DNA of 39,648 nucleotides from a virus. This document shows, one piece after another, positions 2,999 to 35,623 of this stretch. Position numbers and translations under genes: made by a program. Below the pieces are notes generated by a model. That model worked only from the letters and a program-made list of their open reading frames with translations. It was not told where the DNA came from and searched no databases. Each line of letters opens with the position of its first letter. Positions within the stretch are counted from its first letter, which is position 1. Where the stretch lies: positions 1-39,648 of IMG/VR virus record IMGVR_UViG_3300045988_050273. One strand, given 5' to 3'.

Positions 2999-4958
2999 GC
3001 CAAAAGCCATTCATATTGATATCGAAACTTATAGCGAAACAGAACTTACCAGCACGGGGGTCTATCGGTACGCCGAAGACCCTTTTTTTAAAATTCAACT
3101 TTTCAGCTATGCCTTGGACGACGGACCGGTTAAACTACTGGACCTGGAACAAGGCGACAAAATACCGAAAAGGATCGTTCGCTATATTTTAGATAAGCGC
3201 GTCGAGAAGTGGGCACATAACGCGCAGTTTGAGCGTGTTTCTTTAAGCGTCCATATTTTCGGTGGTTTCGGTGTATTCCTGGACCCGACGAACTGGCGCG
3301 ACACTGCAGTCTATGGCCGGACCCTGGGGCTGCCTGGCAGCTTGGATCAGATGGCTAAGGCCTTAGAACTGGACGACAAAAAAGACGCAGTCGGTAAGCG
3401 TCTGATTAACTATTTCTCTAAGCCGTGCAAGCCGACCAAAGTGAACGGCGGTCGGACCCGGAACTTGCCGGAACACGCGCCGGAGGACTGGAAGCTTTAC
3501 GGTGAGTATAATATCCAGGACGTGGTCGTCGAGCGATCGATCCATGAACGGCTGCAAGCAATGTATCCTAAGTTCCCGGCTCACGAGTGGGAATTTTATG
3601 AAATGGACCAGCGGATCGCGGACACTGGCATACCAGTCGACCTGGACTTTGTTGAAAAAGCGATCAAGCTTAAGAACCGAATGCAGCGCAAAGCGTCGCG
3701 GCAACTTAAACGACTTACTGGCGTCGAAAGCATTAATGCCAAGCAACAACTAAAGGCCTGGGCAGCAGAACAAGGCTACCCAATCACAAGCCTGGACGAG
3801 GATCACAGAAACGCCTATTTAGAAGACCCGGAACTAGGTGAACAGTTCCCAGACGTCTATAAAATGGTAGAACTAATCGACCAAGCTGGCGGTACGGCCG
3901 TGGCCAAGTACGACAAAATTTGGGGATCAACGAACAACGACGGGCGACTACGCGGCCAGCTTATTTTCTACGGCGCTGGGGCCACTGGACGCTTTGCTGG
4001 AAAAGGCGTACAGGTCCAAAACTTGCCACGTATGGGCAAGGACGTACTTAAAAACCTGGACAAGTTACGGGGCCGAGTGAAAGCCGGTAAGCGTGTAACA
4101 TTTAAGGAACTAACGCAGCTATGCCGGACAAGCTTTGCAGCGATTGAGGGCACGACGTTCGGCGTGAGTGACTATAGCAGTATCGAAGCCCGTGTTACAC
4201 CATGGTACGCTGGCGAGAAGTGGGCGATAGACGCCTTTGAAGACGGCCAGGATATCTACGTAGCTACGGCGGTTAAAATGTACCACGTCGACTATGAAAC
4301 AGCCAAAAACGAGTATAGGCAAAAAGGGAAGCAAGCAACGCTGGCCCTAGGTTACGGCGGCGCAGTCGGGGCCCTAGTGGCCATGGGCGCCTTAAACGCT
4401 GGCATACCAGAAAACGAGCTGCCGGAATTGGTCAAGGCTTGGCGACAAGCAAACCCGTCGATCGTCCGCTTTTGGCGTGACACCGAGAAAGCCGTAAAGG
4501 CTATCATACACCACCAGGGCAAGAAAAAAGCGACCCTGGCAGACGGTAAGCTAACGATCACGTATCGAAACGAATATAAGCTACTGCAGATATGGCTACC
4601 TGGTGGTCGGGCGCTTAGTTACTACGGCGCTCACTTGGATCGCAAGAAAAATATCCGCTACCTGGGCGGCATTAAAGCCAACGGCGAAGCCTGGTACAAG
4701 GACACCTTTGGCGGTAAGTTAGTCGAGAACATTGTGCAAGCAACGGCACGCGACTTGCTTTGTGAAGCCTTGTTACGGATCGAAAAAGCTGGCTATCGTA
4801 CGTTATTCCACGTACACGACGAAGCGATCGTCGAGGTCCCTAAAGACTTTGAGATCGAGGAACTTAACGAACTTATGGCAAGCCCACTGCCGAAATGGGC
4901 CAAAGGTTTACCGCTAGGCAGCGAGGGTGACACGGTAAGCTATTACAGAAAAGTCTAG
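2991..4958 (+). CDS. DNA polymerase, family A (with 3'-5' exonuclease domain)
   Basis: Exonuclease motifs: IDIETYS (Exo I), HNAQFERVSL (Exo II), YNIQDVVV (Exo III). Polymerase motifs: SDYSSIEARV (A), RQKGKQATLALGYGGAVGAL (B), HVHDEAIVEV (C). Confidence 0.95.
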   Translation: MSRPKAIHIDIETYSETELTSTGVYRYAEDPFFKIQLFSYALDDGPVKLLDLEQGDKIPKRIVRYILDKRVEKWAHNAQFERVSLSVHIFGGFGVFLDPTNWRDTAVYGRTLGLPGSLDQMAKALELDDKKDAVGKRLINYFSKPCKPTKVNGGRTRNLPEHAPEDWKLYGEYNIQDVVVERSIHERLQAMYPKFPAHEWEFYEMDQRIADTGIPVDLDFVEKAIKLKNRMQRKASRQLKRLTGVESINAKQQLKAWAAEQGYPITSLDEDHRNAYLEDPELGEQFPDVYKMVELIDQAGGTAVAKYDKIWGSTNNDGRLRGQLIFYGAGATGRFAGKGVQVQNLPRMGKDVLKNLDKLRGRVKAGKRVTFKELTQLCRTSFAAIEGTTFGVSDYSSIEARVTPWYAGEKWAIDAFEDGQDIYVATAVKMYHVDYETAKNEYRQKGKQATLALGYGGAVGALVAMGALNAGIPENELPELVKAWRQANPSIVRFWRDTEKAVKAIIHHQGKKKATLADGKLTITYRNEYKLLQIWLPGGRALSYYGAHLDRKKNIRYLGGIKANGEAWYKDTFGGKLVENIVQATARDLLCEALLRIEKAGYRTLFHVHDEAIVEVPKDFEIEELNELMASPLPKWAKGLPLGSEGDTVSYYRKV

Positions 4959-10091: not shown

Positions 10092-10487
10092 ATGATAAAT
10101 TTCAAAGTAACCGGCGTCGATATTCAAGCCGACGTAAACCAGGACGACTTCACAAGCGTCATACTTCACACCTTAGTCACAAGCGACAAGAAACGGGGGT
10201 CCGCCGAGGAATTAGAGCAGATCGCTAGGGCAGTCGGTACGCTATGCCATACTGACCTGGAACCCGGGTACGAGGTAAACCGGGCGCCTTTGGGTCACAC
10301 GGTCGAAGAGGTCAACAGTACGATAAGCTACGCTGAAAGCGCAGTGTATGACAGTGTTATGTTAGAACTTAAAAATGCAGCCCTTAAAGGTGTAGCGCCT
10401 ATCCAAGCCATTAAGAACTTAGGCGGCATTGAGAGCGAGGGCGTTCTGCTGGCGGTACGTGACTGGCTTAACGAGGTGACGCAATGA
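10092..10487 (+). CDS. Hypothetical protein (131 aa)
   Basis: ATG 10092 follows AAGGAGGG. The stop overlaps the next start (ATGA). Confidence 0.75.
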   Translation: MINFKVTGVDIQADVNQDDFTSVILHTLVTSDKKRGSAEELEQIARAVGTLCHTDLEPGYEVNRAPLGHTVEEVNSTISYAESAVYDSVMLELKNAALKGVAPIQAIKNLGGIESEGVLLAVRDWLNEVTQ

Positions 10488-10801
10488 TAATCGCAACCTT
10501 TAAACCAGACGGCTTTTGGGTCAAGGGTCATGCAGAATACGCAGAGATCGGTAGCGATATCGTTTGCGCTGCCGTGTCGTCCCTGGTTACTCACACCGTT
10601 CGGCTCATGGCGCAACAAGGGTACCAATACGAACTCACAGAGGACGTCACAGGCCTTGCAGCCGTTAAGGTATTAGTTACACCGTTTGGGGCTTTAAACG
10701 TCATGAGCGCGCTCATGGATAGCCTAAACGACATTGCAGCTCAGTACCCGGAAAATATCGAGGTCCACGACTTTACGAGAAAAGAGGAAGACAATGAATA
10801 A
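10484..10801 (+). CDS. prp: Prp-like cysteine protease (ribosomal protein L27 N-terminal processing family, DUF464)
   Basis: MIIATFKPDGFWVKGHAEYAEIGSDIVCAAVSSLVTHTV carries the family signature GHA...G.DIVCAxVS (His/Cys dyad). The size (105 aa) is typical. Confidence 0.85.
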   Translation: MIIATFKPDGFWVKGHAEYAEIGSDIVCAAVSSLVTHTVRLMAQQGYQYELTEDVTGLAAVKVLVTPFGALNVMSALMDSLNDIAAQYPENIEVHDFTRKEEDNE

Positions 10802-12335: not shown

Positions 12336-12508
12336 TTAAAGTAGTTTTCAACATGGCCAGCGGTCAGAAATTAACCGGAGATATGGACGAAGAACAGTAT
12401 CAAGCACTTATTCAGGCAGCCATAGAGGAACCCGTTATCGAGATCAGGGGCGACGGTAAGCGTGTCGTCATATTTACAAAATACATCGAAAGCATTACAA
12501 GGGGGTAG
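12332..12508 (+). CDS. Small protein (58 aa)
   Basis: Track ORF 12200 trimmed to ATG 12332, which follows the second GGAGGTAGTGAAATGA junction. The translation starts MIKVVFNMASGQKLTGDMDEEQYQAL... Confidence 0.65.
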   Translation: MIKVVFNMASGQKLTGDMDEEQYQALIQAAIEEPVIEIRGDGKRVVIFTKYIESITRG

Positions 12509-12512
12509 TGAA

Positions 12513-13013
12513 ATGAGCACACTGTTAAGTCACGCAAAAGAAGAATTGAAACGATACAACAATGGCCTATACGGCGACATGTTAAGCGAAGCAATTTACG
12601 AGATCGTCGAGGTATTCGCAAAGCAAGGTCATAGCGGTTTTAGCGCAGCAATGGCAGCCGAAGCAGCTGGGCGCTTGATGAACTTTAAACCTTTGACACC
12701 ATTGACCGGGGAAGACGACGAGTGGAAAGAGCTGGACTACCTAGGCGGCCATGCACGCTGGCAGAACAAGCGCCACACTTCACTATTCAAGGACGAAGAT
12801 GGTTTTTGCTACGACCTTGACGCCGTAACCTTTGAAGACGTAGACGAGCCTGGTAACTTCTTCACTAATGGCGACCTGGTACGTCGTTACCACCGAGGTA
12901 TTCCGCGGATCAAGTTCCCTTACATGCCAGCAGATAAGCCCGTAGTGTGCAAGATCAAAGAACTTAACGACGGTACGCGTGTGATCGTCGACTATGGGGC
13001 TGGGCGCAGATGA
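12513..13013 (+). CDS. Hypothetical protein (166 aa)
   Basis: Track ORF 12462 trimmed to ATG 12513, which follows the third junction copy GGGGGTAGTGAAATG. Confidence 0.75.
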   Translation: MSTLLSHAKEELKRYNNGLYGDMLSEAIYEIVEVFAKQGHSGFSAAMAAEAAGRLMNFKPLTPLTGEDDEWKELDYLGGHARWQNKRHTSLFKDEDGFCYDLDAVTFEDVDEPGNFFTNGDLVRRYHRGIPRIKFPYMPADKPVVCKIKELNDGTRVIVDYGAGRR

Positions 13014-20708: not shown

Positions 20709-21281
20709 ATGAACAGAGAAGCACTGAAAGCACTTGGTTTGAATGATGAACAGGTCGACGCAGTCATGGCAGCACACGGACAGGCAACCGGTACTTTGAC
20801 CCAGCAAGTCGCAGAATTAACCACGGAACGCGACAACTTGCAGACCCAGGTTACTAACTACGGCACGCAGATCGAAGAACTGAAAACAACGTCCGGCGAA
20901 GAACTGACCAGCAAGATCGAAGAGATCAAACAAGCCCAAGCTGCAAAGTTGGCAGAAAACGAGCAAGCTATGGCAGAGTTGAAAAAAGGCTACGAGGTAC
21001 GCCTTGCTTTACAAGCGGCCGGCGCGCGTAACGCTAAGGCAGTCGAAGCTTTACTGGACCGCTCGATCATTAAGGTCGAAGACGGTAAAGTAGTCGGGAT
21101 CAACGAGCAGATCGAAAACTTGAAAAACGGTGAGGACACCAGTTTTCTATTTCAAGAAGCCCAAGCGACCCAACCAGCTAAGCCAGCTATTACGTTTTCT
21201 AGCAACTCTAGTGACCCGGCGGTAGTCACAGAAACTGACCCGTTCGAGGCCATGTTTAAAAGCATAGAAAATGGAGAGTGA
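20709..21281 (+). CDS. Scaffolding protein (Phage_GP20-like)
   Basis: MNREALKALGLNDEQVDAVMAAHGQ plus a long coiled coil. It lies immediately upstream of the capsid gene. Confidence 0.8.
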   Translation: MNREALKALGLNDEQVDAVMAAHGQATGTLTQQVAELTTERDNLQTQVTNYGTQIEELKTTSGEELTSKIEEIKQAQAAKLAENEQAMAELKKGYEVRLALQAAGARNAKAVEALLDRSIIKVEDGKVVGINEQIENLKNGEDTSFLFQEAQATQPAKPAITFSSNSSDPAVVTETDPFEAMFKSIENGE

Positions 21282-21286
21282 AAAAG

Positions 21287-22288
21287 ATGAAAAATGTTTC
21301 TAAAGCCAACATGCAGCGCGGTATGGCAATGCAGTTGCAACGATTTGCGACGTACACAACGCCTACCACGCCAGGTAGTAACAAAGCTAGCAACACTACA
21401 GGGGTCGTAGGATCGATCGGCGTTTATCGTCCGCAATTTGTCCGCGCCTTGTCGTTATTATTCCAAAAACGTTCTTACTTTGCTAACTTCTTTGACGGAG
21501 GGATCGCAACCCAGGACGATATCGCGGAAAACGACACAGTCTTTACGTTGAAGATTAACCAGCAGCCAGTGGTAGCTAAACGCTACGACGTGGACCCTAA
21601 CGTAGCCTTTGGCACAGGGACCGCTAATTCTACTCGTTTTGGCGAACGTATGGAAATTGTCTACAAAAATGTAGCCGTACCGTACACTTGGGACTATGGC
21701 TGGCATGAGGGTATCGACCGTGCTACTGTTAACATGGACGAAGCTACAGCGATCGCAGATCGTATCAAGGCACAAGCAGAATTTAAAATGAGCGAATTTA
21801 ACAAAGCTCACGGAAAATTCATTTCTGACAATGCTACAGCGTTGACTAACTCGACCGTGGCTGGGGCTAACCCAACGCAAGCCGAAGTTGTCGCAGCGTT
21901 TAACGAAGCCTTTGAGTTATTCACTAACTTAGAAGCGATCGGAACTAAACGCGCTTATGTAACGCCGGAAGTTTGGAACTTGATTGTAGACAGTGGCCTA
22001 GCAGTTAACGACGCGAAAGCAGCTGGCGTGAACGTGGCAACTAACTATATTTACTCTTTCAAAGAGTTCATTTTAGAGTTGACACCTAAGTCTGCAATGG
22101 GCGGCGCTAACGACTTAGTTTACTTCACGATTGACCGCGCGGCTTTGGCCTTTACAGGCGTCGCTACAGCGCGTACGATCGAATCGGAAGACTTTGACGG
22201 TAAAGCATTCCAAGGCCGTGGCCGTGCCGGTGAGTACATTCTTGACGATAACAAACAAGTCGTTAAGAAATTAGTGGCTACACCCTAA
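21287..22288 (+). CDS. Major capsid protein with an L27-like N-terminal leader
   Basis: Position and size fit the major capsid protein. ATG 21287 lies 8 nt after GGAGAG (GTG 21278 is an alternative). The leader is MKNVSKANMQRGMAMQLQRF/ATYTT. Confidence 0.8.
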   Translation: MKNVSKANMQRGMAMQLQRFATYTTPTTPGSNKASNTTGVVGSIGVYRPQFVRALSLLFQKRSYFANFFDGGIATQDDIAENDTVFTLKINQQPVVAKRYDVDPNVAFGTGTANSTRFGERMEIVYKNVAVPYTWDYGWHEGIDRATVNMDEATAIADRIKAQAEFKMSEFNKAHGKFISDNATALTNSTVAGANPTQAEVVAAFNEAFELFTNLEAIGTKRAYVTPEVWNLIVDSGLAVNDAKAAGVNVATNYIYSFKEFILELTPKSAMGGANDLVYFTIDRAALAFTGVATARTIESEDFDGKAFQGRGRAGEYILDDNKQVVKKLVATP

Positions 22289-22289
22289 T
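22283..22289 (+). other. Candidate +1 programmed frameshift site (CCC_UAA_U shifty stop)
   Basis: The capsid frame ends ACA CCC TAA. The +1 frame reads CCT AAT GTG CCC... and is open from 22275 into the Big_2 ORF. The Big_2 ORF has no SD. Confidence 0.45.
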
Positions 22290-22556
22290 GTGCCCGTACA
22301 AAGCGTTACACCTAGCCAGCAAACGTTGACCATGAAAGTAGGCGACGCTGCCAAAGCCGTGAGCTTCACGGTAGCGCCGTCGACGGCAACGAACAAAGGG
22401 CTAGACTATACTATCGACACCGCGATCGCAACGTACGTCGACGGTAAGGTAACGCCAGTCGCAGAGGGTACTACGGACTTAGTAGCAACCGCTAAAGACG
22501 GATCGGGCAAAACTGGAAAAATTGCGATTACAATTAACCCGGCGGACGCTGGATAA
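22290..22556 (+). CDS. Bacterial Ig-like (Big_2) domain, either a free protein or a frameshift extension of the capsid protein
   Basis: VTPSQQTLTMKVGDAAKAVSFTVAPSTATNKGLDYTIDTAIATYVDGKVTPVAEGTTDLVATAKDGSGKTGKIAITI fits the Big_2 pattern. GTG 22290 lies 1 nt after the capsid stop, with no recognisable SD. Confidence 0.7.
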   Translation: MPVQSVTPSQQTLTMKVGDAAKAVSFTVAPSTATNKGLDYTIDTAIATYVDGKVTPVAEGTTDLVATAKDGSGKTGKIAITINPADAG

Positions 22557-22565
22557 TTAACAACC

Positions 22566-22603
22566 TTAAGGGCTGGGGCTTAGGTCCTAGCCCTTAATTT
22601 TTT
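22566..22603 (+). terminator. Intrinsic terminator after the capsid/Big_2 genes
   Basis: TTAAGGGCTGGGG (22566..22578) pairs with CCTAGCCCTTAA (22586..22597), followed by TTTTTT. Confidence 0.8.
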
Positions 22604-22620
22604 AGAAAGGCGGCGAGTAT

Positions 22621-23040
22621 ATGGCTTACTTAACGTTTCAAGAGTACCAGAGTTACGGCGGATCACTTGAAGAAGCCGAGTTTCAAAAATTGCTACCAAA
22701 GGCTGCCGACGCGATCAATAACCTAACACTGGACTTTTATGAGGACCCGTTAGTATTGGAAGCCGACATTTTGACGCCACAGTATGGCCGCAGAGCCGTT
22801 CGGTTTAAAAAGGCGATAACTTACCAGATCGAGTACTACAGCTTCTTAGGCACGACGTCAGTGGCCCAGATGAACGCTACGCCGTCGTCGCAGAGTATCG
22901 GCGGCACAAGCGTAAGCTATGGCGATCAAGTACGCGACGCGTCCGGGAACGTTTCACGGTACGCGGCCGAGGTTATCGAAGTCTTAGAGCCGACCGGTTT
23001 ACTGTATCGGGGGGTAGGCCTATGCAGACGCTACAGGTAG
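22621..23040 (+). CDS. Head-tail connector / adaptor protein (gp6-like, putative)
   Basis: The N-terminus MAYLTFQEYQSYGG...LLPKAADAINNLT and its position as the first gene after the capsid genes are typical of head-tail connector proteins. Confidence 0.6.
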   Translation: MAYLTFQEYQSYGGSLEEAEFQKLLPKAADAINNLTLDFYEDPLVLEADILTPQYGRRAVRFKKAITYQIEYYSFLGTTSVAQMNATPSSQSIGGTSVSYGDQVRDASGNVSRYAAEVIEVLEPTGLLYRGVGLCRRYR

Positions 23041-23369
23041 ACCCACGCTGGCTTGTCGATAGTTTTATCTTTGAGAAATACGCTGGGGCCGACGGATATG
23101 GTGGCGTCAAGTTTGAGAACCCTATTACAGTTGATAATTGTCGTATCGACTACAAGAAAAGTTATGAACGAAACTCGAACGAAGTTGTAAAGATCGGCGA
23201 CGGTACTATCTTCTGTTATGGCAAGTACACGACAGGCGCAGCCTTGACGGACCTGGTAGAAAAATCAAAGGTCACAATCGACGGAAAACCTTACACCATT
23301 AAACAGGTGGCCATTTTCAAGGAAGTCATGAGCAGCGATATTTTCAGCGTTGAGTTGGTGATCCTATGA
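23022..23369 (+). CDS. Head closure / head-tail joining protein (putative)
   Basis: Called from its position and size (115 aa) in the connector gene set. It overlaps the upstream gene. Confidence 0.5.
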   Translation: MQTLQVDPRWLVDSFIFEKYAGADGYGGVKFENPITVDNCRIDYKKSYERNSNEVVKIGDGTIFCYGKYTTGAALTDLVEKSKVTIDGKPYTIKQVAIFKEVMSSDIFSVELVIL

Positions 23370-23701
23370 AAAGCTATATCACTATTAAGTCAGACCTTAG
23401 TGGCATTAAGAAGAAATATTCAGCGGCTAACCTTAAGCGAGTTCAAGACGCTTTTGGCGAACAGGTCGCGAACGATATGTTCCCTTTTGTCCCAAAGGCA
23501 CAGACGAAAAACCTAAGCAAGGGGCGTTACAACCCAGGTACCGGATCAGTCGACTATAATGTACCGTATGCCCGTAGACAGTTCCGCGGCGGCAATGGCT
23601 GGCACTACACGACGCCAGGCACAGGACCACGCTGGGACCTTAAGGCAAAAGCACGGCACGGTAAGTCGTGGCGAAAATTTGTAGCTGGGAAACTAACCTA
23701 G
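23366..23701 (+). CDS. Tail completion / neck protein (putative)
   Basis: Called from its position and size (111 aa). It is coupled to the upstream gene by an ATGA overlap. Confidence 0.5.
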   Translation: MKSYITIKSDLSGIKKKYSAANLKRVQDAFGEQVANDMFPFVPKAQTKNLSKGRYNPGTGSVDYNVPYARRQFRGGNGWHYTTPGTGPRWDLKAKARHGKSWRKFVAGKLT

Positions 23702-23716
23702 CTAGGGGGTAAGAAA

Positions 23717-24097
23717 ATGCTAGACTTATTGGAACGATTGAAAGATAATATAAGAGGGTTAGGCCTTGAAATCGTGCAAAACATAAACACAGAGGACGAC
23801 AGTATAGCCATTGCGGCATTGCCAGGTGGCCGAGTTATCCAAGAATACTATGGCGGCATGAAAGACAAGGAACTAAACTACGAAATCAGGGGCAAGACCA
23901 AAGACCCTAAGAAGACAGAGGAAGAACTAACGCAGATCAGCGATCACCTAACGGACTTACAAGCCTTACCGTCATTGAACGGCAGCTACGAGTTTATCGG
24001 TGTAACGGTCAGCGACGAGCCTTACTTTATCGAAGCAGACGACCAGGCATTTTTCCACTTTGCGCTTGGGTTTTCGGTCCGTGTCACTGTATTTTAA
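23717..24097 (+). CDS. Tail terminator / neck protein (putative)
   Basis: 126 aa, directly upstream of the major tail gene. Confidence 0.5.
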   Translation: MLDLLERLKDNIRGLGLEIVQNINTEDDSIAIAALPGGRVIQEYYGGMKDKELNYEIRGKTKDPKKTEEELTQISDHLTDLQALPSLNGSYEFIGVTVSDEPYFIEADDQAFFHFALGFSVRVTVF

Positions 24098-24115
24098 TTT
24101 AGGAGAGTGAAAAAC

Positions 24116-24910
24116 GTGAAAGACATCAAACTTTTTTCTATGAACTTGCAGCGCTTTGCACGTGCTAAGAACGCTTTGCGTGGTCACTTTATCGCAGAGT
24201 ATACGCCGGGCGAAGACATGCCAGACGTAGCAGACGGTACGAAGTGGCTAGAGCTTGCAAAATGGATCAGCAACATTGACGACGATACAGACGAAGAAAC
24301 TGACGACACCGGTTTCTATGACGGCGACGGTACACCAGAAACGACAGTCGTATCCGTAGCGATCGGCTATTCAGTCGAGGGGTTCTATGATAGCCAAGAC
24401 CCAGCGCAGCAACTCATTAAGAGCAAAAAGCGCAAAGTCGGCGACGGCCGTAAAGTCTGGCATATGGTAGTGGACGCAGATCAAGTCAATATGTGGATCG
24501 GTCGCGCTACAGTAACCGATATCGTAGCCGGTGGCGGCGACGCTACAGAATTTGAAGCATTTAGCTGCAGTATTCGCTTTGATAGCATTCCAAGCGAACT
24601 AGCGGCCGCTGGGGTAGGCGTACCGGCTAACATTAACGGCAGCACGGACGTAGTACCTACAGCCGTTACCATTTCTGGGGCAGCACCTACAATCAAAGTA
24701 GGGGCTACAGTAGAGTTAGGCACACGCTTAGGCTTTACACCGACTACAGCTACGGTACGTACCGGGTCATGGGCTACCACTGATAAAACAGTGGCTACTG
24801 TGAACCAGGCCGGACTTGTAACTGGCTTGAAAGTCGGAACAGCGACGATCGTATTCGTAACAACGAACGGCCTAGTGGCCCAAGTTGTCGTAACCGTCGA
24901 AGCAGCATAA
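24116..24910 (+). CDS. Major tail protein with L27-like N-terminal leader and C-terminal Big_2 domain
   Basis: It lies upstream of the chaperone and tape-measure genes. The start region GGAGAGTGAAAAACGTGAAA matches the capsid start region at 18 of 20 positions, which places the start at GTG 24116 (track start 24107). The leader is MKDIKLFSMNLQRF/ARAK. The C-terminal roughly 90 aa fit the Big_2 pattern. Confidence 0.8.
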   Translation: MKDIKLFSMNLQRFARAKNALRGHFIAEYTPGEDMPDVADGTKWLELAKWISNIDDDTDEETDDTGFYDGDGTPETTVVSVAIGYSVEGFYDSQDPAQQLIKSKKRKVGDGRKVWHMVVDADQVNMWIGRATVTDIVAGGGDATEFEAFSCSIRFDSIPSELAAAGVGVPANINGSTDVVPTAVTISGAAPTIKVGATVELGTRLGFTPTTATVRTGSWATTDKTVATVNQAGLVTGLKVGTATIVFVTTNGLVAQVVVTVEAA

Positions 24911-24920
24911 AAAACGAATT

Positions 24921-24955
24921 AACGGGCTGGGGCTTTGGCCCTGGTCCGTTTTTTG
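24921..24955 (+). terminator. Intrinsic terminator after the major tail gene
   Basis: AACGGGCTGGGGC (24921..24933) pairs with GCCCTGGTCCGTT (24938..24950) using G-U pairs, followed by a T-run (24949..24954). Confidence 0.75.
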
Positions 24956-24957
24956 TA

Positions 24958-25216
24958 AAGCTAGTATGCCGGCTCGTCTACCACCTAGTACACCGTGAAA
25001 CGTTGACAGACCGGGCTTGTTACTAGGTGTTACTAGGTCATACTAGCTTTATATAAGATTTAATTTAGGTATAGTGGTCCTAGGGGTACCCTACACTATA
25101 TTAGTATTGTATAATAGTTTAAAAGCGCTCGTAGTACCTAGTAACCTCGTAACTAGACCGGTACGACAGCCTTTTGAGGTATACGAGCCAAAAATGGACC
25201 TCGTACCTCGTACACC
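24958..25216 (+). repeat. Structured ~260-bp non-coding element, copy B
   Basis: It is homologous to 14712..14972. It contains TACTAGG x2 plus TACTAGCTT (25021..25049), TTTATA/TATAGT (25048..25075), an extended -10 TGTATAAT (25108..25115), a CCT(A/C)GTA array (25127..25212) and a hairpin (25178..25216) that abuts the SD of the next gene. Confidence 0.9.
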
Positions 25217-28688: not shown

Positions 28689-30757
28689 TGACAATAACCT
28701 ATGGGGGCGTAGAGATTACGAAATACCTACGACCTTTACGAGAACTGGACCGAAAGATTTTACCAGAAATCGAATACCAGTTAGACAAAGTCGGCAAGTC
28801 GGACGGGTACCTGGTACGCGGCGGAAGTTTTGGCCAGCGTATTATACCAATGCCTTTTAAGATCACAGACAATTTACTGCAGAATCGACGAGAGTTGGCC
28901 CGGGTACTTAGTACCCGGGAACCACTGCAACTAATTTTTAGCGACGAGCCAGACAAATATTGGCTTGCTTTGCCTACGGGCGATATAAGCGTCGCTGAAA
29001 TGGTTTTCCAGGGTAAGGGCCAGATCGATTGGATCGTACCTGACGGGGTAGCCCACGCTGTAACGCCGCGTATTTTTACGAACGTTACGACACCAACGGG
29101 GACCGCTAACCAGGTACTTGATCCAGAATTTCAAAACCGAATGAAATACTACAAGCCTTGGGCTTCATTGCTGCAAGAGGTATACAATACCCACAACGTC
29201 GTCAAAGGTGATTTTACCGACACTAACACGATCGCGGACAAAGGCGAGCCTAGGGTCCTAGGTATGCACGTCGTCCAGCAGCCGCTAAGTTCGGCCAGGA
29301 ATATATCGTCGCTAGCCATTGGGTCCAAAGTTTCGGCCCAGGTCATGGCCAGGATCGATACAGCGGCCACAGGGGACACCACAGGCGCCAAAAGCGTCGC
29401 TTTGGTAGTCCAGGAACTAGAATACGCTGGCGGCCCGGTACTGGCTTACAAGGCCGTATATCCGACGTCGCTAAAAGTCGGCACGTTTCAAGCTTTGACA
29501 ATCACAGGCTACACGATCACACAAGCAAAGACCAAAGCGCTAAACATGCTCATGCTTATCGGTGATACTGCAGCAGTTAGTTTCTCTATGCCGCAGTACA
29601 ATCTAGGGGCAACGCTAGCGCCATTCAGTGTTACAAATAACACGTTGACCGACATGATAGCCGTAACTAACCCAGGGTCGTACCGTTCCTGGCCAATTAT
29701 CCGGGCACTTATGAACGGTGAGAACGGACTAGTGGCAATCGCCAACGAAGACGAGGGGCTTTTGCAGTTCGGGAACCCAGACGATATCGACACCGCGCCA
29801 GGGGTCCGTACCGATAAAGTTATCAGCATACCTATGAGAAACAACGGCAGCAAGTTTGAGTTAAACAGCCCGAAAGCTAAGCCAGACTACCCTAACTTTT
29901 TACTAGACCCGTCAACGCCTAACAAGCCGGGTATCGGGGGCATTGACTGGAAAGCTAACCCGGAAGCGGCAACGCCTATATGGCCCGAAAATAAAGACGC
30001 CGTTTGGGCTGGTCCAACGCTATACACAGATATACCTAGAAATACGGCCAACCGTGCAGACGGGACTTTCTTATGGCGTAACCGGTTCGACTTCCAACCA
30101 ACTAAAGCAACGTCGGGGCGCTTAACCTTTACGCTGCAAAACGAAACAGATGGTTCTGTATTGTCTGCAGTTATCCGGGATAGTACACGAAGTAAAGAAG
30201 AATTGATCGTCGAGTTTTCTTGCTTTGACCGAGTACAGCACAGAGTAAGCCTTGACCGGAAAAAATGGACTGGCCGCTTTTGGGAGGTTTCGATTGAACG
30301 TACCGGAGATATGCAAGTTACTTGGAAGTTTTCACAATTCAAGGCATTTAGCGGCGAGGGTATCGAAGCAGCACGATCCGAAGTTTTCCAGGCTACACTA
30401 CCAGAAATAAGCGGCAAGGAGATCGACGGGCTTTGTTGCTGGTTTCAAAAGTGGGGCGACGACCCAACCAATAAATGGACGACGTTTATGGACTGGACTG
30501 ATACCAAGTTCTACTGGACCAACGAAGAAGTAGCAACAAATATACCCAATCTATTCGACGACGGCGACCTTGTTGAAATTGACACGGCAGCCCGAAAAGT
30601 ATACATTAATGGCATAGAGAATTTTCAAATCCAAGCTATCGGTAATAGGTGGGAACGGTTCGCAGTTGAGCCAGGAACGACTACCATGCTACCAATAGCG
30701 TCGACTTGGGCCAATATGTATGAGTGCCAAGTCGAATTGAGAGGGGCATATCTGTAA
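28685..30757 (+). CDS. Distal tail protein (Dit), enlarged form
   Basis: The N-terminus MMTITYGGVEITKYLRPLRELDRKILPEIE...RIIPMPFKI is typical of siphovirus Dit. At 690 aa it is about twice the size of a minimal Dit. Confidence 0.75.
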   Translation: MMTITYGGVEITKYLRPLRELDRKILPEIEYQLDKVGKSDGYLVRGGSFGQRIIPMPFKITDNLLQNRRELARVLSTREPLQLIFSDEPDKYWLALPTGDISVAEMVFQGKGQIDWIVPDGVAHAVTPRIFTNVTTPTGTANQVLDPEFQNRMKYYKPWASLLQEVYNTHNVVKGDFTDTNTIADKGEPRVLGMHVVQQPLSSARNISSLAIGSKVSAQVMARIDTAATGDTTGAKSVALVVQELEYAGGPVLAYKAVYPTSLKVGTFQALTITGYTITQAKTKALNMLMLIGDTAAVSFSMPQYNLGATLAPFSVTNNTLTDMIAVTNPGSYRSWPIIRALMNGENGLVAIANEDEGLLQFGNPDDIDTAPGVRTDKVISIPMRNNGSKFELNSPKAKPDYPNFLLDPSTPNKPGIGGIDWKANPEAATPIWPENKDAVWAGPTLYTDIPRNTANRADGTFLWRNRFDFQPTKATSGRLTFTLQNETDGSVLSAVIRDSTRSKEELIVEFSCFDRVQHRVSLDRKKWTGRFWEVSIERTGDMQVTWKFSQFKAFSGEGIEAARSEVFQATLPEISGKEIDGLCCWFQKWGDDPTNKWTTFMDWTDTKFYWTNEEVATNIPNLFDDGDLVEIDTAARKVYINGIENFQIQAIGNRWERFAVEPGTTTMLPIASTWANMYECQVELRGAYL

Positions 30758-33700
30758 TGGACTTTTATTTAACAGACCGAAGATTTAACCTTTTAGGCGT
30801 AGTTTCGACGAGTTCCGAAGCTACGCTGCAAATGGTTAACGAAACCGACACGCAAAGCATAGAGAACGCAGCCCGTGAGTTTGAGGGAACTATCTTATTC
30901 CCTACGCGACTATCAACTAAGATTAAGACGCTGGCAGCTTATGGCAATTATCTGCTATACAAGGACGAGCAAGGGAAATCAGTTTTCATGACGATCATGG
31001 AGATCGAACATGACCCGTTAAACGGCACACACTTTATACGTGCCGAAGACGCTGGCATGGACTTATTAAATGGCTACGTCGGACCTTACAAAGCAACCAA
31101 GGCAATGACATTCAAACAATACTTTGACGTTTTCGCCAAAGGTACCGGGTTTACGATCGGGATCAACGAAATCACGGACCTATCGCGTACCCTCGAATGG
31201 GAAAGCGAAGAGCAGACGATCCTTGCCAGAATGTTATCCGTGGCAACGCAGTTCGACAATGCAGAAATAGCATTCAGTTTCACGATAACCGGTACGCAAG
31301 TGGTCCAGCGGCGCCTTGACGTTATGAGAAAACGCGGCGCAGACAATCGGATCATTTTATATGCTAACCGTGACATTAACAACATAGTAACCAAAGGGAA
31401 CATATACGACCTAGCTACAGCGCTAGAAGTGTCGGGCGGTGAGATCGACGGCGTACCAGTTACGCTTAAGGGCTACAGCTACACGGACCCCACGGGTCGT
31501 TTTGAATTGGACCCAGCAACGGGTATCCTTTACGACACGGAAAGCGTGAAAGTTTGGTCGCGTCTTTTGAGCAACGACAACCCGAACCCAGAGAACGGTT
31601 ACATCAAGCGCCTTAAGTCGTATGAAACAACGAACAAAAAGACTTTACTTGATAACGCGATCCGCGAACTAACGAAAGTAAGCCAGCCGATTGTCAACTA
31701 TGAAACCGACATAAGCAAGCTGCCGGATAACGTACTTATCGGCGACACGGTTTACCTATCCGACGAAAATCAAGAGTTATATTTATCGGCCCGAGTTTTA
31801 ACCCTGGACCGTTGCTACAGCGAAGAAACCTACACGGCAACCCTGGGGGACTATTTGATCGTAGAGGACGGCCTGGCCTTGTCACTCAAAGAGATCGCAG
31901 CGCAGCTTAAAGCCGAAACGACGTACTTATGGATACGGTACGCCGACGACGATCAAGGTAGCGGCATGAGCCCAAGCCCTAGCGGCAAAGAGTATATAGC
32001 AATCAAAAGCGTCGTAGGCGTACCAACTGCCAGCGACGACCCGGACGACTATATCGGCCTTTGGCAGAAGTTTGTAGGGGATCAAGGTATACCAGGGCCG
32101 CAAGGTCCGAACGGGGCTACGACGTACACCTGGTTAAAATACGCCGACGACGATCAAGGTAGCGGCATGAGCGACGACCCAGCTGGCAAAATGTATATAG
32201 GGCTAGCAACCAACAAAACGACGCCGACCGAAAGCACGAACCCGGCAGACTATAAGTGGCAGCTAGTCAAAGGTGAGGACGGCCAAGATGCACACGTTTA
32301 CCAGGCCTACGCCTTTGACGAAACCGGTACGGATCGCTTTACGATACCTTACCCGAACGAAAATATAATCTTAAATTCTCAATTTAAGAATGGTACGACG
32401 GGTTGGCTAACTGGTAATGCAAGTGTGGAAGTTGACACCACTAATAAGCTTGATGGGCTTAACTCTATGAAAGTAGGCCTTAACGCTGATAGTACCGCCG
32501 GCACAGCGTCAAGGGCATTTTACAGATATAATGGCGAGACCGGTCTAGTACCGTCCAGCGGATCGTTATGGCTAAAAGCCGATAAGGACGTAAAAATAGG
32601 TATAAGAACCGATGGCGGTACTAAAACAGGTAGCTACAATGTAACTACAGAGTGGCAGCGGTTCGAGATACCTAAAGACGGCTACATGGTATTGATATGG
32701 GCATTTAGCTCATGTGTATTATGGGTAGCAAAGCCCAAAGTAGAGAATAGTTCGGTAACAACCATTTACACACCAGCGCCAAGCGAAGACTTTGCCAACG
32801 CTTACCCTACTTTCATGGGGACCTATGCAACGTTCGACGACACGCAAAGCACAGACCCAGCAGACTACACTTGGGCCAGAATGCTAGGTAATTCCGGGGT
32901 CGGTATCAAGACGACGGTCGTAGAATATGCCGTCGGTACCAGCGCCACTACAGCGCCGACTAGCGGCTGGCAAGCGACACCGCCAGCAGTTGGGACTAAC
33001 CAGTACCTATGGACCCGGATCACTTTGACCTATGACGACGAGAGCGTCGTTACAAGCTATAGCGTGGGCGCCAGAGGGGCGCAAGGTCCACAAGGTCCGA
33101 CAGGTCCAAGCGGTAACGGGATCGACACCAGCGTCGTAACATACGCAGCTGGGACCACAGGGACAACAGCGCCAGCTACAGGGTGGCAAGCAACGCCGCC
33201 AACCGTGGCAGCGAACCAATTCCTTTGGACAAAGATCGTACTTACCTATACCGACGGATCAAGTACCACGTCGTACGCCGTTGGTAAAATGGGGGCACAA
33301 GGTCCACAAGGGGCCAAAGGTGACACCGGACCCCAGGGGCCTACAGGTCCGACGGGTAACGGGATCAGCAGCAGTACGATCAGCTACGCGGCTAGCACGT
33401 CGGGGACAACGGCGCCAAGTACAGGCTGGCAAGGAACACCACCGACAGTTGCGGCTAACTCTTATCTTTGGACCCGTGTGATTATAAATTACACGGACGG
33501 AAGCAGCAGCACGTCGTACAGCGTCGGTAAAATGGGGGCACAAGGCCCACAAGGTAATGCTGGGGCACAAGGTCCACAAGGGCCAACTGGTAACGGGATC
33601 GACACCAGCGTCGTAACATACGCGGCAAGTGCTAGCGGTACGACGGCGCCAAGTACAGGTTGGGCTACCACGCCACCAACCGTGGCTGCAAACCAATTTC

Positions 33701-35253
33701 TTTGGACCAAGGTAGTAATAACTTACACCAACGGGACAAGTACAACCGCGTACAGCGTCGGTAAAATGGGGGCACAAGGTCCACAGGGGGCCAAAGGTGA
33801 CACGGGACCCCAAGGGCCAACAGGTCCGACGGGTAACGGGATAGCAAACAGTACGATCCACTATGCAGCCAGCACGTCGGGGACCACGGCGCCAAGTACA
33901 GGCTGGCAAACTACGCCGCCGACCGTTGCTGCCAATTCGTTCCTATGGACCCGAGTAGTTATTAACTACACCGACGGCACAAGTTCGACGTCGTACAGCG
34001 TCGGTAAAATGGGGGCACAAGGCCCACAAGGTAATGCCGGGGCACAAGGTCCACAAGGGCCAACAGGTAACGGTATCAGCAGCAGCGCCGTCAATTATGC
34101 AGCAAGTGCTAGCGGTACGACGGCACCAACTAGCGGCTGGGCTACAACGCCACCGACCGTGGCAGCTAACCAATTCTTATGGACCCGAGTAATAATCACT
34201 TACACCAATGGGAACACGACAACCGCGTACAGCGTCGGTAAAATGGGGGCACAGGGTCCAAAAGGCGACACCGGGGCACAGGGTCCGAAAGGGCCACAAG
34301 GTCCACAGGGGCCGCAAGGTATCCAGGGCGTAGCCTACTTAAGCCCAACGCAGCCAAGCACGACGCAAAACGGGTCACAGTGGTTTAAAACGGTATCGAC
34401 GACTAACCGGACAGTAACGGACATATATACGTATGTTACCGGGTCTGGTTGGGTCAAGACACCACTGGCAGCTGGTACTTTGGCCGTGACGTCGATCAGT
34501 GCAATAAGCGCCAACCTGGGTGACATAACAGCCGGTACGATTAACGGGGTGTCGATCACAGGGGCCGGGCTTTATTCAGACTTTGACCGGGCCAATGTAA
34601 GCGGTGGGACAGTGTGGACTAAGGGAAAACTGACCATGGCAAACGGTAGGTTTAGAAATGACTTTCAAGAGTATACAAAATCTAGTGGAACAGTAACCCG
34701 GAACGGTTTTTCGGAACTTACCCACGAAGCGCTAACCATGGCCAGTTTTAATGGTACCCAGACGACCACAGTGGACCGATATCTGCAGATTAACCCGTTC
34801 AGGATTAACATGATAGACAGCCAAGGGCGCGGCGGTAACTTGACTTTCCAGGACTTGTACAGCCTAGGCAAGATAGGCATTCCGGCCGGAAGTGGCTGGC
34901 GGCAATATAATACAAGTTCTAGTTCGGGTAACTTCCCAAGTGCTACCAGGGTCGGCCGTGTGGTACAGCTTGCCGGGGCCTTTGCGCCTAACGCAGCGAA
35001 GCCGTCCGGTACCGAGAACGAGGTCATGGGAACACTGCCCGTGGGCTACCGACCAGATTCGGACTGTAACTTTATCTGCCAGGGAACCAGGGCGAACATA
35101 TATTTATTAGTCGTAAAGGCAAATGGGCAACTAATGTTTAACCGTTACCGCGGCGATACTGGATCAAGCAACAACTATAAATTTGACTACAAGGACTGTA
35201 CAGAGGGCGCTTGGATCAACATAGCTTGTACCTTTGCTGCCGCAGACGTATAG
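30757..35253 (+). CDS. Tail-associated / receptor-binding fibre protein (Tal N-terminal domain, collagen-like repeats, repeated beta-rich modules)
   Basis: Track ORF 30724 trimmed to ATG 30757 (TAATG overlap; GAGAGGGG SD). The N-terminus [16 protein letters not shown] is typical of phage minor structural / Tal proteins. G-X-Y runs and six repeated modules span 32887..34329. Confidence 0.85.
32887..34329 (+). repeat. In-frame repeat array inside the fibre gene (six ~62-81 aa modules separated by collagen-like G-X-Y runs)
   Basis: Module starts are at 32887, 33076, 33292, 33535, 33769 and 34012, with a final G-X-Y run at 34246..34329. The block 33292..33768 is near-duplicated at 33769..34245 (477-bp period). 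Confidence 0.9.
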
Positions 35254-35264
35254 GAGGGGATAGC

Positions 35265-35495
35265 ATGACAGAACTACAGAAGCAATTTATCGAAGCATAC
35301 GAAGCAGCTGGCCGGACCATAACCGGTCAGGCTGCCGAGCTTTTTCAAGAGTTACTAGAAAAAGAGTTCGACGACGACCCGGAGAAAATGACCGCGTTTA
35401 TCGATTCACTACAGGAACCAGAGCCAGCCGCGATTTCACTTGAAGACCTACAGGCTGCCATGGTAGAATTAACTAACATGATTCTAGGGGGGTGA
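35265..35495 (+). CDS. Hypothetical protein (76 aa)
   Basis: Track ORF 35211 trimmed to ATG 35265 (AGGAGGGG 35253..35260). Confidence 0.7.
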   Translation: MTELQKQFIEAYEAAGRTITGQAAELFQELLEKEFDDDPEKMTAFIDSLQEPEPAAISLEDLQAAMVELTNMILGG

Positions 35496-35500
35496 AAAAC

Positions 35501-35623
35501 ATGAAACAGTATCCAGCATTATCGAAAATCTTTGCTGCCGAAGTCTTAGAGGGTAGAATGACGATTGACGAAGTACCAGAATTGCTACGCCAACAGGTCC
35601 GCGAAATTTTAGGACTTGCTTAA
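35501..35623 (+). CDS. Small protein (40 aa), XkdX-like position; not in the ORF track
   Basis: ATG 35501 follows GGGGGGTG. The translation is MKQYPALSKIFAAEVLEGRMTIDEVPELLRQQVREILGLA. Small proteins of this type commonly sit between fibre and lysis genes. Confidence 0.5.
   Translation: MKQYPALSKIFAAEVLEGRMTIDEVPELLRQQVREILGLA

Follow-up and report, generated by a model that had tools for sequence, protein, structure and literature searches.

A Prp-type leader on the tail tube protein of an EC99P2-like phage that also encodes a Prp-family protease

The 39,648-nucleotide viral sequence IMGVR_UViG_3300045988_050273 of IMG/VR (positions 1 to 39,648, the whole of which we call the window; all coordinates below are on the plus strand) encodes a major tail (tube) protein that begins with a short leader resembling the N-terminal extension of the ribosomal protein L27 of Firmicutes. 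We favour the reading, and consider it likely, that the tube subunit is made as a precursor with a disordered 14-residue leader that mimics this extension, and that the leader would be cut between Phe14 and Ala15 by a cysteine protease of the Prp family, most likely the phage's own. The mature subunit would then start ARAKNALRGHF, as leaderless homologues do after removal of Met, and the capsid protein would be cut likewise after its Phe20. The candidate enzyme is a Prp encoded at 10484..10801, upstream of the structural genes, although the host Prp may contribute; because the gene sits among replication genes, the phage Prp is expected to be made ahead of the late proteins.

Along its entire length the window is collinear with Enterococcus phage EC99P2 (40–88% amino-acid identity; 72.5% for TerL), and it thus represents an essentially complete genome of a phage of the EC99P2 lineage. 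A nucleotide search of positions 21000–25000 against the phage collection gave no match, and relatives are detectable at the protein level only.

The tail tube leader and its conservation

The gene at 24116..24910 encodes a siphophage major tail (tube) protein, on which profile, beta-sandwich fold and gene position agree. The PHROG profile phrog_820 ('major tail protein') matches residues 15–165 (E=1e-54), a Big_2 Ig-like domain (Pfam PF02368) is found at residues 182–251 (E=2.3e-9), and in the map of open reading frames (ORFs) annotated with PHROG and Pfam the gene is preceded by four connector genes and followed by the chaperone and tape-measure genes. A search of the PDB with a sequence profile of the tube family returned nothing significant, and the fold was therefore assigned with an AlphaFold 2 (AF2) model built from 30 homologues (mean predicted local distance difference test score, pLDDT, 81), for which Foldseek returned the Sf11, YDC107, lambda gpV, monocin MttP, 80alpha and SPP1 tubes (template modelling score 0.5–0.7, probability 1.0). 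Residues 1–20 have a pLDDT of about 50, and the leader is thus predicted to be disordered.

The start codon is GTG 24116, 8 nt downstream of GGAGAG (24102–24107); the ORF begins MKDIKLFSMNLQRFARAKNALRGHF and its translation opens MKDIKLFSMNLQRFARAK, that is, MKDIKLFSMNLQRF'ARAKNALRGHF, where the apostrophe here and below marks a known or predicted scissile bond. MNLQRFA is encoded at 24140..24160, with F14 at 24155–57 and A15 at 24158–60. The GTG start is backed by homologues P0001, P0004 and P0009, in which the residues upstream of Met9 are conserved, and the EC99P2 tube gene, with an ATG start and an AGGAGG site, reads MKNIRLFSTDLQRF'ARSK; the predicted mature EC99P2 protein would start ARSKNALRTHW. 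The capsid gene begins MKNVSKANMQRGMAMQLQRFATYT from ATG 21287, and its leader reads MKNVSKANMQRGMAMQLQRF'ATYT, ending in MAMQLQRF, with LQRFA at 21335..21349. A preliminary description of this DNA, made from the sequence alone, had reported a Prp-type leader on the major tail protein, and its sequence, its coordinates and the identity of the tube gene all check out.

The published Prp motif is (D/N)LQ(F/L)F'A, and substrates of Staphylococcus aureus Prp (SaPrp) need Phe at P1, which stacks on His22, Gln at P3, Leu at P4, a hydrophobic residue at P6 and a small residue at P1' (PMC9405229). The tube residues P5–P1', N-L-Q-R-F'A, fit both this motif and the structural requirements. The L27 leader of Enterococcus faecium is MLLSMNLQLF'AHKK (Table 2 of PMC9405229), and its SMNLQLF'A corresponds to ..FSMNLQRF'ARAK in the tube, which bears out the resemblance to the Lactobacillales L27 leader that had been pointed out. 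The leader occupies the extreme N-terminus, with 14 residues ahead of the F14'A15 junction where about 8–20 would be expected.

A six-frame scan of the window finds LQ.FA three times, compared with 0.34 occurrences expected from shuffled sequences (0.1–0.34 for the strict motif in six frames). Of the three copies, one falls within the N-terminal 25 residues of the capsid protein, another within those of the tube protein, and the last on the antisense strand of a gene; LQRFA occurs in no real gene of the window other than the capsid and tube genes. The capsid and tube genes encode MxLQRFA with different synonymous codons (caa/cag, cga/cgc, gcg/gca), and there has therefore been no recent DNA duplication of the LQRFA stretch; as the preliminary description maintained, it is the peptide and not the DNA that is conserved. 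A relaxed pattern, [LI]Q.[FL][AS], is about as frequent as chance would predict (6 observed, 6.1 expected). One leader-like instance, KIQLF'S at 3093..3107, is found some 35 residues from the N-terminus of the family A DNA polymerase, right after the ExoI DxE motif; we judged it a chance match, as the pattern is at its expected rate and a cut there would remove the ExoI motif.

Conservation was surveyed in the 120 best homologues, in 151 genomic loci (the flanks around the tube gene) and in 224 unique mature tube domains. Most of the 120 best homologues start M-A-R-x-K-N-A-L-R-G-H-F, and across the homologues and the 151 loci most start M-[ASTG]-R-x-KNA, but a leader-bearing subset has 5–16 extra residues that end in (N/D)(L/I)Q-x-F and abut A-R-x-K-N-A. 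The F'A junction of these tubes aligns exactly with the Met and Ala that open the leaderless MAR.KNA homologues, so that cleavage after Phe would leave the N-terminus of the leaderless relatives. The residues right after the junction are the most conserved part of the N-terminal region, with K18, N19, A20, R22 and H24 invariant across the family alignment. In a profile of 29 unique junctions, with P1 and P1' left unconstrained, P4 is Leu or Ile throughout (29/29), P5 is Asn or Asp in 27, P1 is Phe in 28, and P1' is Ala, Gly or Ser in 28.

The tube has a leader at 33 of the 151 loci and lacks one at 111, and 40 of the 224 unique sequences carry it (about 18%). In a neighbour-joining tree of the 224 unique mature domains the 40 leader tips form 11 maximal clades made up solely of leader-bearing sequences; the root is leaderless, and parsimony requires at least 11 changes. 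A survey of homologous tail proteins, which had been proposed as a check on the leader, is thus positive in at least 11 clades and excludes a chance match. The named hosts of leader-bearing tubes include Enterococcus malodoratus, E. viikkiensis, Virgibacillus salarius, Oceanobacillus spp. and one Bacillus sp. Within the phage group of the window the leader is variously placed on the capsid only, on the scaffold and capsid, on the tube only (Enterococcus prophages, in which the capsid is leaderless), or on the capsid and tube, as in the window itself; by this distribution it is a movable module. So far as sequence comparison can establish it, the tube leader is a real and conserved Prp/L27-type peptide and not a chance match, and it is probably processed.

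The phage Prp and the P2 residue of the leaders

A scan for the Prp active-site signature identified the ORF at 10484..10801, which matches Pfam PF04327 (Peptidase_Prp) with 58.2 bits (gathering cutoff 27) and aligns over its full length with the structures of S. aureus and S. pneumoniae Prp (4PEO, 7KLD, 2IDL). Its His16, Gly23, Asp25 and Cys28 correspond, with the same spacing, to His22, Gly29, Asp31 and Cys34 of SaPrp, and this catalytic core is invariant among the phage Prps. Scores against the cellular equivalogs of NCBIfam are only 20–40 bits, far under the cutoffs of 133–225, and the protein is therefore a divergent phage paralogue and not the host enzyme; its gene sits among early and replication genes and not in an rplU-prp-rpmA operon. 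The preliminary description had not connected this gene with the leader.

The six relatives P0121–P0126 include five close ones (78–99% identical) and one distant, all with the catalytic core, and the gene has the same position in the three whose contigs were read (including P0122 and P0124; 39.5-kb and 16.7-kb contigs). EC99P2 also has a Prp among its early genes, EC99P2_00036, which is annotated as hypothetical and scores 45 bits. All Firmicutes encode Prp (10.1101/2025.08.01.668195); with a phage-encoded enzyme as well, the likely mechanism shifts from one dependent on the host protease to one that is at least partly self-contained. Prp homologues are present in at least 484 confirmed stretches of viral contigs, and in the isolates phiFL3A, TP712, phiS11 and Lj965 the Prp gene follows the portal gene. 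For the window's tube family, the 151 loci consist of the flanks of the tube gene only, and none has a Prp gene up to 7 kb away from it on either side.

Phages of the TP712/phiFL3A/phiS11 type have a second, unrelated tube family, in which a leader is present on 10 of 28 unique proteins, the others opening M(A/T)T(V/F)AGLLSK. These tail proteins come from 80 Prp-encoding loci, across which 28 of 35 unique capsid proteins and 25 of 37 unique scaffold proteins also bear a leader. In phiS11 the scaffold, capsid and tail proteins all carry NLQRF'A (the tail protein reads MKKINLQRF'AGTVD); in phiFL3A the scaffold has NLQFF'A, the capsid NLQIF'A and the tail protein MKKLDLQLL'AGEPAFEGLLSKG; in TP712 the scaffold has NLQRF'A and the capsid NLQRF'S, and the tail protein (MATVAGLLSKG) is leaderless. 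Leaders also open large proteins of 518–671 residues in some Prp-encoding viral contigs (L176 16200.., L220 7943.., L230 6029..; MNLQLL'ARKDE, ..MDLQLF'ARKQR), and the substrate range may therefore exceed capsid, scaffold and tube.

Unique leaders from Prp-encoding loci have Arg, Lys or Gln at P2 in 30 of 74 cases; those from the window's tube family, at loci none of which has a Prp in the morphogenesis module, have these residues in none of 39. The tube leaders of both the window and EC99P2 have Arg at P2, and both phages carry Prp, which together with the P2 association suggests that the cognate protease is the phage enzyme.

Precedents and alternative readings

Prp is pursued as an antibiotic target; apart from the ribosomal protein, its only substrates with proof, to our knowledge, are capsid and scaffold proteins, both from a single staphylococcal phage. 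In phage 80alpha the leaders of the capsid (gp47) and scaffold (gp46) proteins are cut by the host Prp (PMC5744158). As in the window, they are L27-mimicking N-terminal leaders of 13–14 residues of the form ..NLQxF'A on abundant, self-assembling virion proteins, in a head module with an SPP1-type portal, minor capsid protein, scaffold and capsid; unlike 80alpha, the window has its leaders on the tube and capsid but not the scaffold, with Arg at P2 and a Prp of its own. With cellular Prp (MEROPS C108) and the bL27 extension the window's system shares the recognition motif, the protease fold and the catalytic dyad, and differs in that the substrate is a virion protein.

That a tail tube substrate would be new, as the preliminary description proposed, is an overstatement. 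Kizziah et al. 2017 (PMC5744158) had already noted a Prp motif on the major tail protein of phi13, whose leader we confirm (MIEKLKQAPRFLKLNLQHF'ADTG), and we find tail-protein leaders in phiFL3A and phiS11 as well, and in many uncultured phages with a Prp gene. The phi13 protein likewise pairs a Prp-type leader with a C-terminal Ig-like domain, but its tube domain has no BLAST-detectable similarity to that of the window and its capsid module is of the HK97 type with a prohead protease; the phrog_820 family to which the window's tube belongs stands apart from it. The Prp-encoding phages of lactic acid bacteria (Enterococcus phiFL3A/B, Oenococcus phiS11/phi9805/phiS13, Lactococcus TP712/PLgT-1 and Lactobacillus Lj965) share with the window a PF04327 protease and leaders on scaffold and capsid proteins, with the major tail protein included in phiFL3A and phiS11, and the NLQRF'A of phiS11 has the same Arg at P2. 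Their Prp gene, however, comes right after the portal gene, whereas that of the window and EC99P2 belongs to the early/replication region and precedes the tube gene by about 13 kb; the tube proteins of these other phages are of a different family.

Three other reports proved not to bear on the question: phi12 was rejected as a precedent, since according to the cryo-electron microscopy paper Met is all that its tail protein loses; an F-pyocin preprint concerns PA0640 and an unknown protease; and a Listeria multi-omics paper matched only through 'PRPP'. A 2025 preprint from the group that described the phi13 motif places the leader in 'some staphylococcal bacteriophages' and regards the existence of further Prp substrates as unclear (10.1101/2025.08.01.668195).

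That the tube leader is cleaved, and by which protease, we infer from these comparisons, and several points weigh against the reading we favour. The searchable literature contains no case of tail-protein cleavage by Prp, and there is no experimental N-terminus of this tube protein or of a homologue. At P2' the tube has a nearly invariant Arg (R16), which is larger than the Ser, His or Asp found there in known substrates. His replaces Phe at P1 in the EC99P2 capsid (L152 2168..3160, MQLQRH'AAQN) and in the tube homologue P0018 (VLQRH'DRTKNA), so leaders can decay without loss of the phage; either these leaders have decayed or the variant is tolerated by the Prp of the lineage. The P2 contrast gives p=2.5e-7 in Fisher's test without phylogenetic correction, and phiFL3A, which encodes Prp but uses Phe, Ile or Leu at P2, is an exception to it that weakens the notion of LQRF as strictly diagnostic of a phage-encoded Prp. 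When the residue at Cys+8 of Prp, equivalent to Phe42 of SaPrp, is compared with P2, Glu is found alongside Arg or Lys and Tyr or Asn alongside Leu, but Ile alongside everything. The presumed enterococcal host of the window is assigned solely through its relationship to EC99P2. Phage 80alpha, moreover, can do without cleavage of its capsid protein, and what this cleavage achieves is unclear (PMC5744158), so that cleavage may license nothing.

Cleavage by the host's ribosomal Prp only, as in 80alpha, would leave the phage Prp another job, such as maturation of host L27 during infection or action on other targets. The likeness of SMNLQRF'A to the SMNLQLF'A of E. faecium L27 would suit such an arrangement, as would the sufficiency of host Prp for the phage substrates of 80alpha (PMC5744158) and the Enterococcus prophage tubes with host-like leaders (MLLKMNIQLF'AR), which have no Prp in the morphogenesis module. 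We nevertheless think it unlikely: both LQRF-leader phages of the lineage, the window and EC99P2, carry a Prp gene, a polar or basic P2 is confined to Prp-encoding loci in the samples surveyed, pairs of Prp and L27 leader are species-specific according to a review (PMC9405229), and the divergence of the phage Prp from the cellular equivalogs fits a specificity of its own. Retention of a translated leader, as a docking or chaperone peptide, a regulatory tag or a decaying relic, is quite improbable. The His-P1 variants would be accommodated by it, and the N-terminal sequence of the 80alpha scaffold is essential while its cleavage is not (PMC5744158), but the residues that Prp reads are strongly conserved at the exact junction (P1 Phe and a small P1' in 28/29 each, with Gln at P3 and Leu or Ile at P4), leaderless homologues work with the N-terminus that cleavage would yield, and a permanent 14-residue extension is less plausible on a tube N-terminus that takes part in ring stacking (PMC8718954). 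A chance resemblance or a wrong start codon has next to no probability. Short motifs do arise by chance, and the relaxed pattern is at its chance rate, yet the strict motif, expected well under once, stands at the N-termini of both the capsid and the tail tube and recurs at the exact junction in at least 11 clades; as to the start, there is no start codon 3' of the motif, the sole internal ATG (24140) keeps MNLQRF, and the residues upstream are conserved in homologues. This alternative is effectively refuted.

Two extensions of the favoured reading, in which a Prp-family protease removes the leader, are more tentative. The N-terminus of siphophage tube proteins helps to make the contacts between rings, and an N-terminal deletion of T5 pb6 abolishes tube formation (PMC8718954); with the conservation of the residues after the junction, this means that a 14-residue extension could restrain the subunits until it is cut. 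That the leader would delay or control the role of the N-terminal arm in ring stacking is doubtful, however, and the proteolytic licensing of tail polymerization put forward in the preliminary description is speculative and finds no direct support, with the dispensable capsid cleavage of 80alpha set against it (PMC5744158). It is possible, if somewhat unlikely, that the phage has a self-contained orthogonal system in which an early-region Prp with its own specificity (a basic or polar P2, LQRF'A) would process capsid and tube and exert timing or quality control over both polymers independently of host Prp, the leaders serving as a mobile 'processing tag' that Firmicute phages would have added repeatedly to abundant self-assembling proteins, among them tail tubes.

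Expression signals, neighbouring genes and implications

The features discussed are collected in Table 1. The preliminary description had also proposed that the capsid and tube genes have a translation-initiation region in common. The two 20-nt boxes are indeed 18/20 identical, but they are not specific to capsid and tail: a pattern search found a third similar box (GGGGGGTGAAAAACATGAAA) at 35487..35506, where 0.01 chance matches are expected. This box precedes an unrelated 40-codon ORF at 35501..35623 (MKQYPALSKIFAAEVLEGRMTIDEVPELLRQQVREILGLA), upstream of the XhlA-like, holin and GH25 lysin genes. As at least three genes have the box, there is no capsid/tail-specific regulatory element, and we rejected that candidate; the box is a generic strong ribosome-binding context, with a strong Shine-Dalgarno sequence, an A-rich spacer and AAA as second codon. 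Two hairpins share the core GGGCTGGGGCTT..GG.CC, one 3' of the capsid/Ig module (22566..22597) and one 3' of the tube gene (24921..24950). The matching 5' and 3' signals look like expression signals of two highly expressed genes and not like a specific coupling of capsid and tail.

Table 1. Coordinates of the leaders, mature proteins, expression signals and candidate protease in the window
Feature	Coordinates	Strand	Remarks
Leader peptide of tube precursor, residues 1–14 (MKDIKLFSMNLQRF)	24116..24157	+	Predicted Prp-type cleavage after F14; P6–P1 = M-N-L-Q-R-F, P1' = A15
Mature tail tube domain, residues 15–165	24158..24610	+	Starts ARAKNALRGHF; phrog_820, family alignment, AF2/Foldseek
Ig-like (Big_2) C-terminal decoration domain, residues 182–251	24659..24868	+	PF02368
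Major capsid protein leader, residues 1–20 (MKNVSKANMQRGMAMQLQRF)	21287..21346	+	Predicted cleavage after Phe20, before A21; phrog_840 matches from residue 48 onward only
Mature major capsid protein	21347..22288	+	phrog_840
Prp-family cysteine protease, 105 aa, candidate enzyme for LQRF'A leaders	10484..10801	+	PF04327; His16, Gly23, Asp25, Cys28
Capsid translation-initiation box (GGAGAGTGAAAAAGATGAAA)	21273..21292	+	
Tube translation-initiation box	24102..24121	+	GGAGAG Shine-Dalgarno, 8-nt A-rich spacer, GTG, AAA second codon
Terminator-like hairpin after capsid/Ig module	22566..22597	+	Sequence similar to hairpin 3' of tube gene
Terminator-like GC-rich hairpin and T-run directly 3' of tube gene	24921..24960	+	Core GGGCTGGGGCTT as in hairpin after capsid/Ig module

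The capsid gene ends ACA CCC TAA T GTG (22277..22310; stop 22286–22288), and a Big_2 Ig-like ORF (22290..22556) follows the stop in the +1 frame without a Shine-Dalgarno sequence. EC99P2 has an identical ACACCCTAATGT at the end of its capsid gene, and its +1 frame reads PNVPV..TPSQ upstream of the annotated ATG. The arrangement suggests a programmed +1 frameshift at CCC_UAA, which would yield a capsid-Ig fusion; cps of Listeria phage PSA is a similar case. Elsewhere in the window, the gene at 12462..13013, directly upstream of the SNF2 helicase gene, encodes a homologue of the Thoeris inhibitor Tad3 (PF25185, E=8.9e-33) and is kept in the related contigs L238–L240. The tail-tip/fibre protein (30724..35253, 1509 aa) contains about seven tandem modules of about 90 residues, each with a collagen-like G-x-y run and a second repeated unit.

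Tail tubes with the leader are common among phages of Enterococcus, Oenococcus and Bacillaceae and among uncultured phages; two tube families are represented here, with phi13 as a third case. The leader has been gained or lost many times, always at the exact junction, and many phages, the present one included, encode a Prp of their own. The cultured relative EC99P2, whose host is known (Enterococcus_D DO99), offers testable substrates and a means of addressing why phage proteins that self-assemble bear a ribosomal processing signal and whether proteolysis controls tail assembly. Even if cleavage should prove dispensable, as for the 80alpha capsid protein, the leader would still provide an annotation rule for the true mature N-terminus of the proteins that bear it.

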